A stretch of DNA of 64,000 nt from Candidatus Spongiisociaceae bacterium (GTDB lineage: Bacteria; Actinomycetota; Acidimicrobiia; Spongiisociales; Spongiisociaceae): the NCBI GenBank assembly GCA_965262915.1, contig OZ253564.1:512001-576000 (forward strand), in the 5' to 3' direction. Of the stretch, positions 29,285 to 34,218 are shown piece by piece; the first letter of the stretch is position 1, and every line of letters begins with the position of its first letter. The notes beneath the pieces were generated by a model. The model worked only from the letters and a program-made list of their open reading frames with translations, did no database searches and was not told the DNA's origin. The position numbers and the translations under genes were made by a program.

Positions 29285-29864
29285 GACTATCGGGCGGGTA
29301 GCCGCTGTCGGCGGCCGGTCGAGCCTCCCGAGTCCTTTCAGAGGTTGGGAATACGGCAGTAGGTGGGAGGGGCCGTTACGTGGGGGGAAACGGCCCGAGG
29401 TTCCCGGGCCCAGAACGCTGCTCTACCCGCGGGCTCGCCGGATGCGGGACACCATCGACCACCACTCCCGATCCGCCACCGGCGCGTCTTTACCCACCAG
29501 CACCCGCAGCGACACAAGCAAGAGCCGATATTGGGTGACCACCATTAGGCTGCCCCTCGTCGAGACCATACCAACCGACACGAGCCCCCAGCGGAAGGGT
29601 GCTCCGCTGCCGCCACCCGGCGAACAGCCATGGAACCGGGTTCCCCAGCACGCCGTTGGTGGCTCTCCCCCTCGAGGGGTTTCGGACGGAAACGACCCCG
29701 AAACCGTCCCAAACCGGCCCTAAGATCGTTAACTAACATAACGCAAAGGGCTGGGAGCCGTTTTGCGGGCTGGGAGAACCCTGCCATGAGCCGGGGAGGC
29801 TTGGCCGTCCTGGTTTGTGTCTTCTTTTCTTGGGCGTCGGCGGGTGGGCCTGTCGGGGGTGTCC

Positions 29865-29914
29865 ATGCCCTGCCATGCCGCGCCGAGCCCAGCCACGCCA
29901 CGCCCAGCCAAGCC
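29865..29914 (-). ncRNA. (GGC-NN)x10 pentamer array, candidate guide RNA
   Basis: Minus strand GGCtt GGCtg GGCgt GGCgt GGCtg GGCtc GGCgc GGCat GGCag GGCat; the array is seen directly, its RNA function is inferred. Confidence 0.6.
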
Positions 29915-29954
29915 GCGAAGAAGGTTGGCCCTGCGCGAAAACACTCATACTTAT

Positions 29955-30135
29955 AGGGTTTCCGGTTGGGGCCGGGTCTGACTCACGCGAAAACTGGCCT
30001 TTGGTGCCTTTCCCACGATCTGTCGACCTGGCCCCGGCTAGGAACCCTGAACCGGGGAGCGGGGTGACTTGATAGGAGCCTTCGACTTCTCCACCGTGAG
30101 TGTTCTGTCCGCCGCTCTGCCCGGCTCCGGGGGTT
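29955..30135 (+). ncRNA. IS110 bridge RNA (target-binding loop, then donor-binding loop)
   Basis: Two hairpins with internal loops holding CGCGAAAAC/CCCACG (match the target) and ATAGGAGC/TGAGTG (match the circle junction). Confidence 0.75.
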
Positions 30136-30166
30136 GGATTCTAGGCAGCCGACGAAAGGCGAGCAC

Positions 30167-31399
30167 ATGGCGGAGCAAGTTAGGGCCGATGGGGTAGGTG
30201 TGGTTGGCGGGGTGGACACACATCGGGATTTCCACGTTGGGGCGGTGGTGGATGGCGCGGGTCGCCTGTTGGGATCCGATCAGTTCGGCGCTGATACCTC
30301 CGGTTATGCCCAACTGGTCGCCTGGATGGAGTCGTGGGGTCGGATCACACGGGTCGGGGTGGAAGGAACGGGCAGCTACGGCGCTGGGCTCACACGTCAT
30401 CTTGCCGAGGCGGGTATCGGTGTGGTGGAGGTGAACCGTCCCAACCGCCAGCTTCGCCGGCGGCGGGGCAAGGATGACACCACCGACGCCGAAGCAGCAG
30501 CCCGGGCTGCTCTCAACGGTGAAGCGACCGCCCTACCCAAGACGGGCGACGGACCGGTAGAAGCCACCAGGATGCTGCGGGTAGTTCGCCGCTCCGCGGT
30601 CAAAGCCCGCACCCAGGCCGCCAACCAGCTGCACGCTCTGGTAGTAACCGCTCCTGAGCAGGTCAAACACCAACTCCGGGATCTCCCGACCCGGACACAG
30701 GTCAAGGTCTGTGCCCGCTTCCGTCCGGGCACAGCGCAGACCACTGCGGCATACGCCAAGCGGGCACTGCGGCTTCTAGCCCGCCGATACCAGAATCTAG
30801 ACACCGAGATCACACAGGTCGACAAACAGATCCGCGGTCTCTGCGCACGGGCCAACCCTGCGTTGCTGGCCGCCTACGGAGTAGGACCCGACACCGCCGC
30901 TGCTCTGCTGGTCGCTGCTGGTGACAACCCACGACGTATGAACTCAGAAGCAGCCTTCGCGGCCCTCTGCGGTGTCAGCCCCGTAGCCGCATCATCGGGA
31001 CGGATAGTGCGGCACCGTCTCAACCGAGGCGGCAACCGCCAAGCAAACAACGCGCTATGGCGGATCGCTACCAACCGAATGCGCACCGACGCTGCCACCA
31101 AAGAATATGTCACCAGACGCGAAGCGGAAGGAAAAACCCACACCGAAATAATCCGCTGCCTGAAACGCCACATCGCCCGCGAGATATACCACCTCCTCAC
31201 CGACCCGCCCCCAACACCCCACGGAACCGACCTACGCCACCGCCGAACCCAAGCCCGAATCACCCTCACCCGCGCCGCCCACCACCTCGACACGCAGCCC
31301 ACCGTCCTATCACAACTCGAACGAGGCCTCCACCACAACCACCACCTCGCTACCCGATACCAACACTGGCTCACCCAACAACCGATTTGCAAAACATAG
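30167..31399 (+). CDS. IS110 family recombinase with C-terminal XRE-like HTH
   Basis: GVDTH, GVEGTGSYG, GKDDTTDA (DEDD), GVGP, SSG..RLNRGGNR; RBS GAAAGG. Confidence 0.95.
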   Translation: MAEQVRADGVGVVGGVDTHRDFHVGAVVDGAGRLLGSDQFGADTSGYAQLVAWMESWGRITRVGVEGTGSYGAGLTRHLAEAGIGVVEVNRPNRQLRRRRGKDDTTDAEAAARAALNGEATALPKTGDGPVEATRMLRVVRRSAVKARTQAANQLHALVVTAPEQVKHQLRDLPTRTQVKVCARFRPGTAQTTAAYAKRALRLLARRYQNLDTEITQVDKQIRGLCARANPALLAAYGVGPDTAAALLVAAGDNPRRMNSEAAFAALCGVSPVAASSGRIVRHRLNRGGNRQANNALWRIATNRMRTDAATKEYVTRREAEGKTHTEIIRCLKRHIAREIYHLLTDPPPTPHGTDLRHRRTQARITLTRAAHHLDTQPTVLSQLERGLHHNHHLATRYQHWLTQQPICKT

Positions 31400-31498
31400 G
31401 AGCATCGTGGGTTGGGTGGGGTGAAATCCTTGGAATGGGGGTGAGGCCCCGCTGGAATCGGTGAATAGCCAACATCGCCGATCCAGGGAGAGGCCTCG

Positions 31499-32695
31499 AT
31501 GTCTGATGTTATGCAAGTACGGCTGCACCTGTCGGGTGTTCGCGTGATGAGAGTGCTGGTCGACTCTGTTGAGCGTCTTGAGGTTGAAGTCGAATCGGCT
31601 CGGGAGTGGTCGCGGTGCCGCCATTGCGGGTTCCGCTGCTATCGGGTGTGGGACCGACGGCCCAAGAGGGTTCGTGACCTGGGGGTGAGCGGCCGCCGCA
31701 CCACGCTGGTGTGGCGGCGACGCCGGTTCGAATGTGGGAACTGTGGCGAGCGGCACCTCGAGGACCACGACCAGTTCGAAGCTGGCCTAACCCGCCGGTT
31801 CGCCCGTCGCCTGGTGGCGGATGCAACGGTGATGTCGATTCGGGCAGCGTCCCGCCATCATGGGGTGGGGTGGCATCGGATCATGGGCCTTGTCCGCGCG
31901 GAGGCGGCTCAGGTGGCGCAGCGTCGCCGGGCCCGGCCGTGTCGTGTGCTGTTGGTCGACGAAACGTCGATACGGCGCCGTCACCGGTATGTGACCGTGG
32001 TGGCCTGTGGCGACAGCGGCAAGGTGCTGGCGATGATCCCGGGCCGTACGAAAGGGTCGCTGGCCAGGTTCTTTAGGGATCAAGGACCCCAGTGGTGCCG
32101 GCAGGTGGAGATAGTCGTGAGCGACGGGTCCCGCTCATATCAGGCCGCAATCGCACAGTATCTGCCAGCTGCTCGCCATGTGCTCGACCGGTTCCACGTC
32201 GTACGCTGGTTCACCCAAGGCCTCACTCTGGTACGCAGAGAGCTGCAGCGCCGCGACCCCCACCGGCGTCCCCCAACGTTCGAGCCGGATCTGTCCCGAG
32301 CCCGCTTCACCCTCCTGCGCCGGGCCGATCACCTAACCGAAGCCCACCAGGCGCACCTCGACAGACTGTTCGATGCTCATCCCCGTCTCCGCACCGCGTG
32401 GGACGCTCTCCAAGAGCTCTACCAGCTATATCAGGCAGACGACCTCGACGGGGCCAACCAGGCGCTCGGACGGTTCGCCGACCTCTACGCCACCGGCCAG
32501 ATACCCCAATACCACCAAGTCGTGGACACCATCATCGCATGGGGAGAACAGATCTTGGCCTACCACACCACCCAACGACGGGTATCCAACGGACCCCCCG
32601 AAGGGATCAACAACCTCCACCAAGTCCTACGACGCGTCGCCCACGGCTTCACCAACTACGACAACTACGCCGCCCGAGGAATCCTCGTAACATGA
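31499..32695 (+). CDS. ISL3 family transposase
   Basis: N-terminal CxxC..CxxC, LVDETS, VVSDG, LDRFHVV, SNGPPEGINN. Confidence 0.93.
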   Translation: MSDVMQVRLHLSGVRVMRVLVDSVERLEVEVESAREWSRCRHCGFRCYRVWDRRPKRVRDLGVSGRRTTLVWRRRRFECGNCGERHLEDHDQFEAGLTRRFARRLVADATVMSIRAASRHHGVGWHRIMGLVRAEAAQVAQRRRARPCRVLLVDETSIRRRHRYVTVVACGDSGKVLAMIPGRTKGSLARFFRDQGPQWCRQVEIVVSDGSRSYQAAIAQYLPAARHVLDRFHVVRWFTQGLTLVRRELQRRDPHRRPPTFEPDLSRARFTLLRRADHLTEAHQAHLDRLFDAHPRLRTAWDALQELYQLYQADDLDGANQALGRFADLYATGQIPQYHQVVDTIIAWGEQILAYHTTQRRVSNGPPEGINNLHQVLRRVAHGFTNYDNYAARGILVT

Positions 32696-32736
32696 CCCCA
32701 CACCGAGCGCCAGCACAGCCAAAACCCACGATGCTC

Positions 32737-33969
32737 CTATGTTTTGCAAATCGGTTGTTGGGTGAGCCAGTGTTGGTATCGGGTAGCGAGGTGGTGGTTG
32801 TGGTGGAGGCCTCGTTCGAGTTGTGATAGGACGGTGGGCTGCGTGTCGAGGTGGTGGGCGGCGCGGGTGAGGGTGATTCGGGCTTGGGTTCGGCGGTGGC
32901 GTAGGTCGGTTCCGTGGGGTGTTGGGGGCGGGTCGGTGAGGAGGTGGTATATCTCGCGGGCGATGTGGCGTTTCAGGCAGCGGATTATTTCGGTGTGGGT
33001 TTTTCCTTCCGCTTCGCGTCTGGTGACATATTCTTTGGTGGCAGCGTCGGTGCGCATTCGGTTGGTAGCGATCCGCCATAGCGCGTTGTTTGCTTGGCGG
33101 TTGCCGCCTCGGTTGAGACGGTGCCGCACTATCCGTCCCGATGATGCGGCTACGGGGCTGACACCGCAGAGGGCCGCGAAGGCTGCTTCTGAGTTCATAC
33201 GTCGTGGGTTGTCACCAGCAGCGACCAGCAGAGCAGCGGCGGTGTCGGGTCCTACTCCGTAGGCGGCCAGCAACGCAGGGTTGGCCCGTGCGCAGAGACC
33301 GCGGATCTGTTTGTCGACCTGTGTGATCTCGGTGTCTAGATTCTGGTATCGGCGGGCTAGAAGCCGCAGTGCCCGCTTGGCGTATGCCGCAGTGGTCTGC
33401 GCTGTGCCCGGACGGAAGCGGGCACAGACCTTGACCTGTGTCCGGGTCGGGAGATCCCGGAGTTGGTGTTTGACCTGCTCAGGAGCGGTTACTACCAGAG
33501 CGTGCAGCTGGTTGGCGGCCTGGGTGCGGGCTTTGACCGCGGAGCGGCGAACTACCCGCAGCATCCTGGTGGCTTCTACCGGTCCGTCGCCCGTCTTGGG
33601 TAGGGCGGTCGCTTCACCGTTGAGAGCAGCCCGGGCTGCTGCTTCGGCGTCGGTGGTGTCATCCTTGCCCCGCCGCCGGCGAAGCTGGCGGTTGGGACGG
33701 TTCACCTCCACCACACCGATACCCGCCTCGGCAAGATGACGTGTGAGCCCAGCGCCGTAGCTGCCCGTTCCTTCCACCCCGACCCGTGTGATCCGACCCC
33801 ACGACTCCATCCAGGCGACCAGTTGGGCATAACCGGAGGTATCAGCGCCGAACTGATCGGATCCCAACAGGCGACCCGCGCCATCCACCACCGCCCCAAC
33901 GTGGAAATCCCGATGTGTGTCCACCCCGCCAACCACACCTACCCCATCGGCCCTAACTTGCTCCGCCAT
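32737..33969 (-). CDS. IS110 family recombinase with C-terminal XRE-like HTH
   Basis: Identical to 30167-31399. Confidence 0.95.
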   Translation of the reverse strand: MAEQVRADGVGVVGGVDTHRDFHVGAVVDGAGRLLGSDQFGADTSGYAQLVAWMESWGRITRVGVEGTGSYGAGLTRHLAEAGIGVVEVNRPNRQLRRRRGKDDTTDAEAAARAALNGEATALPKTGDGPVEATRMLRVVRRSAVKARTQAANQLHALVVTAPEQVKHQLRDLPTRTQVKVCARFRPGTAQTTAAYAKRALRLLARRYQNLDTEITQVDKQIRGLCARANPALLAAYGVGPDTAAALLVAAGDNPRRMNSEAAFAALCGVSPVAASSGRIVRHRLNRGGNRQANNALWRIATNRMRTDAATKEYVTRREAEGKTHTEIIRCLKRHIAREIYHLLTDPPPTPHGTDLRHRRTQARITLTRAAHHLDTQPTVLSQLERGLHHNHHLATRYQHWLTQQPICKT

Positions 33970-34000
33970 GTGCTCGCCTTTCGTCGGCTGCCTAGAATCC

Positions 34001-34181
34001 AACCCCCGGAGCCGGGCAGAGCGGCGGACAGAACACTCACGGTGGAGAAGTCGAAGGCTCCTATCAAGTCACCCCGCTCCCCGGTTCAGGGTTCCTAGCC
34101 GGGGCCAGGTCGACAGATCGTGGGAAAGGCACCAAAGGCCAGTTTTCGCGTGAGTCAGACCCGGCCCCAACCGGAAACCCT
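34001..34181 (-). ncRNA. IS110 bridge RNA (copy 2)
   Basis: Mirror of 29955-30135. Confidence 0.75.
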
Positions 34182-34218
34182 ATAAGTATGAGTGTTTTCG
34201 CGCAGCCTCAGAAGGTTT

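Follow-up and report, generated by a model that had tools for sequence, protein, structure and literature searches.

A probable bridge-RNA gene in an IS110-family element of a Candidatus Spongiisociaceae genome, and the single core base that its donor and target share

We analysed a 64,000-nt stretch of the genome of a Candidatus Spongiisociaceae bacterium (GCA_965262915.1, contig OZ253564.1, positions 512,001 to 576,000; hereafter the window, to which all unprefixed coordinates refer). The segment 29943-30135 is, on the strength of its sequence, very probably a bridge-RNA gene in the left end of an active-looking insertion sequence of the IS110 family. A first-pass annotation of this DNA had proposed this reading, and it is supported by the anatomy of the element, its family membership, the covariation of guides with flanking DNA, empty insertion sites and the conservation of a putative promoter split between the two ends. 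IS110 bridge RNAs are established; the evidence supports placing the element among them as a new member that varies in having a one-base core.

The element, its four guides and the DNA segments that they would recognize are as follows.
29943..31406, + strand: IS110-family element, copy 1; 1,464 bp with the shared C counted once at the right end, delimited by empty sites and by an identical second copy
29934..29942, + strand: left target (LT), identical to the left target guide and including the core C at 29942
31407..31411, + strand: right target (RT) GTGGG, to which the right target guide is complementary
29943..29947, + strand: right donor (RD), formed by the element's left end: ACTCA
31396..31406, + strand: left donor (LD), formed by the element's right end: ATAGGAGCAT and the core C
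29986..29994, + strand: left target guide (LTG) CGCGAAAAC, which reads as the top strand across LT and core, so that its pairing would be with the bottom strand
30012..30019, + strand: right target guide (RTG) CCCAC, then G (pairing with core C), then a putative handshake AU complementary to the donor A-T before the core
30072..30082, + strand: left donor guide (LDG) AUAGGAGC, then a mismatch, then U and U; it matches ATAGGAGC-A-T-C except opposite A
30097..30104, + strand: right donor guide (RDG) UGAGU, then G (core), then a putative handshake UU complementary to the target A-A before the core

Re-reading of the letters bore out the matches on which the first-pass annotation had relied. The left flank at 29934-29942 recurs letter for letter as CGCGAAAAC at 29986-29994, and two hexamers of the leader are reverse complements of junction sequences, CCCACG (30012-30017) of CGTGGG (31406-31411) and TGAGTG (30097-30102) of CACTCA (29942-29947). 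The extended right guides also matched as described: the reverse complements of CCCACGAT (to 30019) and TGAGTGTT (to 30104) stand at 31404-31411 (ATCGTGGG) and 29940-29947 (AACACTCA), respectively. The fourth match, ATAGGAGC at 30072-30079 with 31396-31403, is present, but its designation as the right end of the element did not hold, as the real end lies 3 nt beyond (...ATAGGAGCATC, with the C at 31406). The donor-loop guides are complementary to the joined ends (RDG UGAGUG with CACTCA; LDG AUAGGAGC, extended by U and U, with ATAGGAGC-A-T-C). Among 20,000 shuffles of the leader, none contained all four guide matches at once, and the single matches were reached by 157 (9-nt LTG), 4,595 (6-nt RTG), 96 (8-nt LDG) and 2,104 (6-nt RDG). 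The two 6-nt right-guide matches are weak alone; the case is decided by covariation among relatives and not by how long the matches are in this copy.

A BLAST search of the element's own genome returned about 30 further full-length relatives with 71-78% identity, and a scan of one genome per species yielded 21 loci in Acidimicrobiia and 'Candidatus Spongiisociaceae' metagenome-assembled genomes (MAGs) with 62-81% amino-acid identity. Fifty-one target loops were extracted (34 in the host genome, 17 at external loci) and represented 33 distinct insertions with a left flank and 18 guide classes. The covariation test used one representative per guide class and 100,000 permutations, the LTG being scored in the better of two registers for cognate and non-cognate pairs alike. 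The LTG matched its own flank at a mean of 7.61 of 9 positions, with eight classes at 9/9, versus 4.27 for non-cognate pairs (n = 302). For the RTG, the mean was 4.14 of 5 in the 14 classes with a right flank, versus 1.24 (n = 180). No permutation reached the observed sum for either guide (0/100,000 each). The comparison of IS110 leaders that had been proposed as a check was therefore positive, the guides changing with the flanks across 18 classes. Examples are given below.
This element: left guide and flank CGCGAAAAC; right guide match CGTGGG
Class B: left guide CCTCGTAAC, flank CCTCGTAAC; right guide match CATGAC
Class F1: left guide and flank AAAGAACAC; right guide match CAACGC
Class L031: left guide and flank TTGACAAAC
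Class L034: left guide and flank TGGATCCAC

Two orthologues in another genome (L039 and L047, 75-76% amino-acid identity) carry the same guides as this element and lie between GGCTTCGCGAAAAC and CGTGGG, again an ISL3-like repeat. The donor is near-constant within the family, which leaves donor-guide covariation weak, and the LDG mismatch opposite the donor A two bases before the core was present in all classes. The class C RDG contains an inserted extra G, which is accounted for by the target C at the handshake place.

Some relatives occupy unexpected sites. One D/G-type copy in the host genome (G000:C1:3663666-3665109, - strand) has flanks that mismatch its guides (left 5/9, right 2/6) and may represent an off-target or half-match insertion. 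The guides of L031 (449-653), TTGACAAAC and TCTATG, are aimed at TTGACAAAC^ATAGGAGC, a sequence comprising the -35 box and the right end of members of its own family; L031 itself occupies such a site. In L044, L048 and L049 (about 420-520; Acidimicrobiia MAG), a relative is inserted in the LTG DNA of a second copy of the same element (..GACTCACCTTGTAAC/ACTCATAATGG..). Since the guide equals the top strand of the target, the loop DNA of an element is itself a near-target.

The secondary structure of the leader was predicted from the single sequence and from relatives, giving the two features below.
29956..30047, + strand: predicted target-binding stem-loop (TBL), its arms at 29956-29982 and 30022-30047 and its cap a GGC/GCC mini-hairpin (29996-30008); from the minimum free energy (MFE) fold, RNAalifold and pair counts
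30057..30117, + strand: predicted donor-binding stem-loop (DBL), arms 30057-30068 and 30107-30117; in helix 3, 5 of 10 pairs are changed on both sides

The MFE fold of the leader (-86.3 kcal/mol) consisted of two stem-loops with the guides in internal loops, and the hairpin-1 arms reported earlier, GGGGCCGGGTC (29969-29979) and GACCTGGCCCC (30025-30035), are present. RNAalifold applied to 14 relatives predicted a target stem and a donor stem and, separating the two guides, a small capping hairpin, with 11 of 36 pairs changed on both sides; this alignment omits L036 and four relatives with an extra 5' stem-loop. When the structure of the window copy was written by hand onto the alignment, its 29 pairs were 87.6% paired, versus 39.6-49.2% when slid by 1-3 columns, nine of the 29 had compensatory changes, and the covariation score was reached in 0/500 shuffles, counts to be read with the caveats that kinship inflates the shuffle control and that a structure based on a single member is biased towards the unslid version. 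G-U pairs are frequent and are consistent only with the + strand as RNA. The motif U-GAC/GUC closes both internal loops, and the two loops look like copies of one module. The folding check that had been proposed thus agreed with the annotation, the guides falling in the internal loops of two stem-loops and the stems being kept by compensatory changes, and the two-stem-loop leader RNA is a prediction supported by covariation. Four relatives (F1, F2, L033 and L037; alignment columns 12-51) have an extra hairpin (~40 nt) that separates the left end from the target loop and is absent in this element.

The guide-like matches could instead be features of the DNA, such as protein-binding subterminal repeats, or relics of captured target or end sequence. 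The shortness of the right-guide matches (6 nt, reached by shuffles at the frequencies above) is in line with such an origin, as is the fact that the leader RNA is predicted from sequence. We consider this explanation very improbable, because the guides move with the flanks in 18 classes, the stems are maintained by G-U pairs and compensatory changes that are meaningful only for a + strand RNA, and the protein family is one that has been experimentally shown to use such RNAs.

The gene downstream of the leader was examined for family membership.
30167..31399, + strand: recombinase open reading frame (ORF), 410 aa from ATG; alternative start TTG at 30134; stop codon TAG within the donor sequence ATAGGAGC

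The ORF contains the Pfam domains PF01548 DEDD_Tnp_IS110 (E 7.1e-24) and PF02371 Transposase_20 (E 7.5e-19), and its product scored 200.2 bits against NCBIfam NF033542 'IS110 family RNA-guided transposase' (cut-off 140). A profile of seven family proteins matched the IS621 transposase 8wt6_A (E 1.9e-13) and ISCro4 9t56_A (E 2e-12), and in this profile search the family motifs GvDt, vEGtG, DtvDa and sSG aligned with the IS621 catalytic motifs; loci L037 and L041 were left out of the protein alignment because of stop codons in their matched stretches. D17, E66, D104, D107 and S277 of the window protein align to the GIDT, IEATG, DTVDA and ESG motifs of 8wt6_A, which appear to correspond to D11, E60, D102, D105 and S241 of IS621, going by the residue names in the available part of PMC11208158 and by the alignment. 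Sequence comparison therefore supports the assignment of the protein as an IS110-family RNA-guided transposase. Its C-terminal extension of ~60 residues (31205-31399, residues about 347-410) is conserved in the family, is absent from the matched part of IS621 and weakly resembles the helix-turn-helix regulator ClgR (3f51_A, E 0.042).

The element lies in a composite structure, and its exact ends were read from it and from related sites.
29927..34209, + strand: host ISL3-family element with an IS110 copy in each terminal inverted repeat; transposase 31499-32695
32730..34193, - strand: identical IS110-family copy 2, inverted, in the other ISL3 inverted repeat; leader from 34193 down to about 34001

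Both IS110 copies point inwards within the terminal repeats of a single ISL3 element (29919-34217), the ISL3-family transposase gene sits between them, and an 8-bp duplication, AGAAGGTT, at 29919-29926 and 34210-34217 bounds the whole ISL3/IS110 composite. Elsewhere in the genome, an ISL3 copy that is intact ends in repeats of ~25 bp, GGC(C)CTGCGCG(A/G)AAACGTGGGTT, and likewise has an 8-bp duplication. Within the host genome, a single contig of 5.06 Mb, there are four copies of the IS110 element, two in the window and two others that are 98-99% identical, and all four are inserted at CGCG(A/G)AAAC/GTGGG of ISL3 repeats in the same relative orientation. Comparison of occupied and empty sites delimited the insert as ACTCATAC...ATAGGAGCATC, 1,464 bp, with a left non-coding end of 224 nt (29943-30166) and a right non-coding end of 7 nt (31400-31406). 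The ends, ACTCATA... and ...GGAGCATC, do not form terminal inverted repeats.

Six empty ISL3 repeats in the host genome read CGCG(A/G)AAAC directly joined to GTGGG. A single C is thus duplicated on insertion, the target being ..A-A-C/GTGGG and the joined donor ..A-T-C/ACTCA. Empty sites showing one duplicated C were found for this element (6) and for classes B (2), C (9; CCGGGAAAC-C-CGGGG), D (16) and H (6). Right ends read ..GGAGC-ATC in 35 of 37 pattern matches in the genome, the others being one outside an element context and one odd copy ending in ATA, and the base before ACTCATA was C in 35 of 35 left junctions. The empty sites confirmed the single shared core base C that the first-pass annotation had flagged as unusual. 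An identical dinucleotide core paired by all four guides, as the CT of IS621 and IS622, was not found in this element, in which only C is common. The dinucleotide core is a trait of the characterised members and not of the family as annotated; the family assignment is kept and the variation recorded. A two-base 'CA' core (AAAA-CA-CTCA / GGAG-CA-TCGT) was also considered and rejected, because in the empty sites (AAAACGTGGG) TCGT is not preceded by CA.

The same genome contains another IS110-family element, IS-X (G000:C1:3638547-3640024 and about 10 more copies), that resembles this one in matching NF033542 (184.9 bits), in its left end of ~240 nt and in a target loop that matches its flanks, but differs in having the canonical CT dinucleotide common to donor and target. 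The normal core of IS-X shows that the one-base core is a trait of this lineage and not of the host.

For the bases next to the core, IS621 provides the reference (here and below, the published systems are compared as described in the available parts of the cited papers). Its LTG and LDG pair with the bottom strand (positions 1-9 and 1-8), its RTG and RDG pair with the top strand including the CT core at positions 8-9, and the top strand is cut after position 9 (PMC11208158, PMC11208160). The two bases 3' of its right guides, the handshake guides, pair with positions 6-7 of the other substrate after strand exchange (PMC11208158), and a handshake guide that pairs with its own substrate blocks the reaction (PMC11208158, PMC11208160).

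In the present family, the RDG base beside the core-pairing G pairs with the target base in 11 of 15 classes and with the donor T in none, and the second RDG handshake place likewise pairs with the target in 11 of 15. The four misses at the first place are classes in which the target also has T there, donor and target both reading T-C. The RDG extension follows the target, from UU for A-A to UG for C-A (L034) and GU for A-C (class C). In the window copy, UU of the RDG pairs with the target A-A and not with the donor T, and AU of the RTG pairs with the donor A-T and, at its first place, not with the target A-A. The annotation's view of the 2-nt right-guide extensions as handshake-like was therefore upheld, both being complementary to the other substrate, with the RDG tested in 15 classes. 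As the RDG follows the target and never the donor T, the base before the core C would act as a handshake base.

These data suggest that in this lineage of sponge-symbiont Acidimicrobiia-type genomes, identity of donor and target is needed at one base (C) only, that the first core position of IS621 has turned into a handshake position, which in either substrate is read by the right guide of the opposite loop, and that over eight contiguous bases the right guides match the products and not the substrates; we give this proposal about an even chance of being correct. A 1-nt stagger, a 2-nt stagger with a tolerated mismatch and transfer of the top strand only would all be compatible with the sequences.

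A somewhat less probable alternative, held tentatively, is that the same bridge-RNA system still makes a two-base crossover as in IS621 (positions 8-9, here N-C), whose first base may differ, the donor having T and the target A or C. The mismatch would be removed by repair, or would never form if only the top strand were transferred and then copied. IS621 tolerates changes of the first core base, which is the less conserved one (PMC11208158, PMC11208160), and two preprints report top-strand-only or copy-out transfer; top-strand-only transfer has been proposed for other IS110 elements (10.1101/2025.10.25.684509; 10.64898/2026.08.31.748434). In addition, F2, L033, L036 and L037 have T-C in both donor and target, which amounts to two-base identity, and the donor T stands at the position before the core in two of the eight empty sites of this type in ISL3 repeats. 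Against this, the two T-bearing sites, both in ISL3 copies that have diverged, may reflect ordinary polymorphism, and if both strands were exchanged, with cuts staggered by 2 nt and repair without bias, about half of the junctions should be swapped. We found none, the 35 ATC right ends and 35 left junctions keeping the donor and target base, respectively, and this absence argues against that form of exchange.

The two T-bearing empty sites (G000:C1:3670238, - strand, and about 263474) read ..AATCGTGGG, with the donor T for A before the core C. They could be excision footprints, insertion-protected variants (in which the handshake A of the target loop would pair with its own target) or plain polymorphism. 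We did not adopt the first of these readings; both sites lie in ISL3 copies that have diverged.

The two ends of the element carry halves of a putative promoter.
29946..29951, + strand: -10-like hexamer CATACT of the left end; CATANT at this place in 37 of 37 elements; a half-promoter that would be completed only by joining of the ends
31387..31392, + strand: -35-like hexamer TTGCAA of the right end; all 37 elements have TTGNNN here; joining of the ends would put it 17 nt from CATACT

The spacing of 17 nt between TTGCAA and CATACT that had been predicted for a circularised element is correct, comprising 14 nt of the right end and 3 nt of the left end. The arrangement TTGNNN-17-CATANT was present in all 37 elements with both ends, with TTGACA in 31 and CATAAT or CATACT in 35. 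A scan of the integrated leader found no sigma-70-like and no terminator-like sites. In the window copy, the -35 hexamer TTGCAA overlaps the last codons of the recombinase ORF.

Several observations weigh against the bridge-RNA reading or temper the tests above. Among the guide data, class L032 lies in a non-cognate site (3/9), several classes match at only 5-7/9, and the LTG extends to the core C in classes A, B, F1 and H and stops one base short in C, D and F2. The elements were gathered with the anchor patterns GTCTGAC.C., AT[CT]TGTCG and TAGGAGCAT, so that the invariance of these anchors, including the AU handshake of the RTG, is partly by construction. The single-sequence fold beat its shuffles modestly (z -2.07; 10 of 200 shuffles as good), and the Rfam covariance models returned no match in 29700-31600 at E up to 1. 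In a phmmer search of the solved structures, the single protein found no match, and only the family profile reached IS621. The junction promoter of this copy agrees with the consensus at 8 of 12 positions, under the scan threshold of 9. A right end-left end junction or tandem copy was not found, with up to one mismatch, in the genome or in any of the fetched loci, and the joint of element end to element start was not found among the assembled public-run contigs listed. Two metatranscriptome contigs of one study cover the leader (X18, 29931-30009; X19, 29931-30144, a variant) but may be DNA, as 12 nt of flank are included. Both begin at the repeat boundary and give no transcript start, end or level, and we count them as evidence neither for nor against expression.

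Some of these points would also suit a dead fossil, that is, an RNA gene intact in sequence within a system that is no longer mobile. The missing circle junction and tandem copy, the weak junction promoter of this copy and the disruption of the donor loop by another insertion sequence in two of the four copies would all fit such a state. A fossil nevertheless appears unlikely, as the two window copies are 100% identical over 1,483 nt (inverted repeat 29931-31413 / 32723-34205) while occupying two sites in the same orientation relative to the repeat, the ORF is open with its catalytic residues conserved, and sister elements reach about 20 copies.

For an active bridge-RNA element, a mechanism can be proposed by analogy. 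The element would leave as a circle in which TTGCAA of the right end and CATACT of the left end are joined at a 17-nt spacing, and the resulting junction promoter would transcribe the leader and the recombinase gene. The leader RNA would fold into the two stem-loops, and the terminal inverted repeat of an ISL3 element would be the insertion target. A tetramer of the DEDD/Ser recombinase would cut the top strands after the shared C and exchange them, whereupon the dinucleotide that follows each right guide on its 3' side, AU for the target loop and UU for the donor loop, would pair with the incoming strand of the other substrate. The right guides would then match the product over eight contiguous bases and the substrate over six only, which should favour insertion. 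Transcription, the circle, RNA-protein binding and the chemistry are all inferred from IS621.

The proposed system shares a number of features with IS621 of E. coli (Durrant et al. 2024, PMC11208160; Hiraizumi et al. 2024, PMC11208158). These are a DEDD RuvC-like plus Tnp/Ser recombinase; a long left end encoding an RNA with target-binding and donor-binding stem-loops; left guides that pair with the bottom strand and right guides that pair with the top strand, with a 9-nt LTG and 2-nt handshake guides 3' of the right guides; a -35 box in the right end and a -10 box in the left end (here -35-like and -10-like hexamers) that would be joined on circularisation; and a repeated sequence as target. 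It differs from IS621 in its core, a single C instead of CT, IS621 core position 8 differing here between donor and target and being read as a handshake base. Further differences are that this copy is without a 5' stem-loop (the extra hairpin of F1, F2, L033 and L037 lies at that place), that the RDG is contiguous and the LDG has a conserved mismatch, that the ORF reaches to 7 nt from the end and has the C-terminal extension of ~60 aa, and that the target is an ISL3 terminal repeat instead of a REP (repetitive extragenic palindromic) element.

IS622 / ISCro4 (Perry et al. 2025, 10.1101/2025.05.14.653916) resembles the element in its architecture and in the requirement that the handshake bases differ between the two substrates, but has identical CT or GT cores, for which site pairs were filtered, whereas the donor here has T-C and the target A-C. 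The IS1111-group seekRNA elements such as ISEc11 (Siddiquee et al. 2024, PMC11187229) and IS4321/IS5075 (cited in PMC11208160) have a transposase of the same superfamily and are RNA-guided, and IS4321/IS5075 likewise insert in one orientation in the terminal inverted repeats of another mobile element (those of the Tn21 family). IS1111 elements, however, encode the guide RNA downstream of their gene and have long subterminal inverted repeats (7-17 bp), whereas here the RNA is upstream and the right end is 7 nt.

One more bridge RNA is ordinary in itself, as such RNAs are already predicted for thousands of IS110 elements. Durrant et al. (PMC11208160) predicted them in 85.7% of the catalogued IS110-group elements. 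Characterised systems are described with dinucleotide cores (PMC11208158, PMC11208160). A phrase search of the literature found no one-base core together with IS110, and a donor with the end motifs of this family was not found among the entries listed in the available supplements of PMC11208160; the absence of a one-base core from print is not thereby established. About 35 related copies, at least eight guide classes and empty sites in one genome form a clean natural data set of guide, handshake and target co-change. Engineered IS621 and IS622 are used with identical dinucleotide cores, whereas the present lineage joins at a single shared base. If this reading is true, a natural enzyme that tolerates or exploits a first-core mismatch would widen the site pairs available for programmable insertion, excision and inversion. 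If, in addition, it reflects a 1-nt stagger or top-strand-only transfer, the 'identical core' rule on recombinable site pairs would be relaxed. The one-base core also bears on the question of whether both strands or the top strand alone are exchanged.

IS-X was further found to attack this family. Three of its copies (G000:C1:3638547-3640024, 4420455-4421932 and 287305-288782, the last also as L003:20-1497) split the donor loop of the two other copies of this element and of one relative. The donor-guide DNA GATAGGAGCC, read as its reverse complement, is matched by the target loop of IS-X (AGGCTCCT ... TGATAGA), and the guides of a sister copy (C1:290128-291604) are directed at ..ATAGGAGCATCC, the right end of a D-type element. 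From these matches to donor-guide and right-end DNA, IS-X appears to be a bridge-RNA element whose targets are the donor sequences of a second such family. The remaining IS-X copies occupy (CACCTGA)n repeats. The donor loop of L036 (416-620) contains ..GAAGTGGTGGACCCCCAT/TAGGAGCC, the same end sequence as IS-X at the same place, which suggests that an IS-X-type attack on the loop occurs in another genome too.

Sister IS110 elements also have targets in the ISL3 ends of the window, at 31420-31433 and 32683-32696, and these are unoccupied. One, GGTGAAATCCTTGG, is the class H target (guides GGTGAAATC / CCAAGG), and the other, CCTCGTAACATGAC, is the class B target (class B element at G000:C1:4996112-4997572). 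With these sites in the same ISL3 ends, three related elements would be programmed against three places of one host element.

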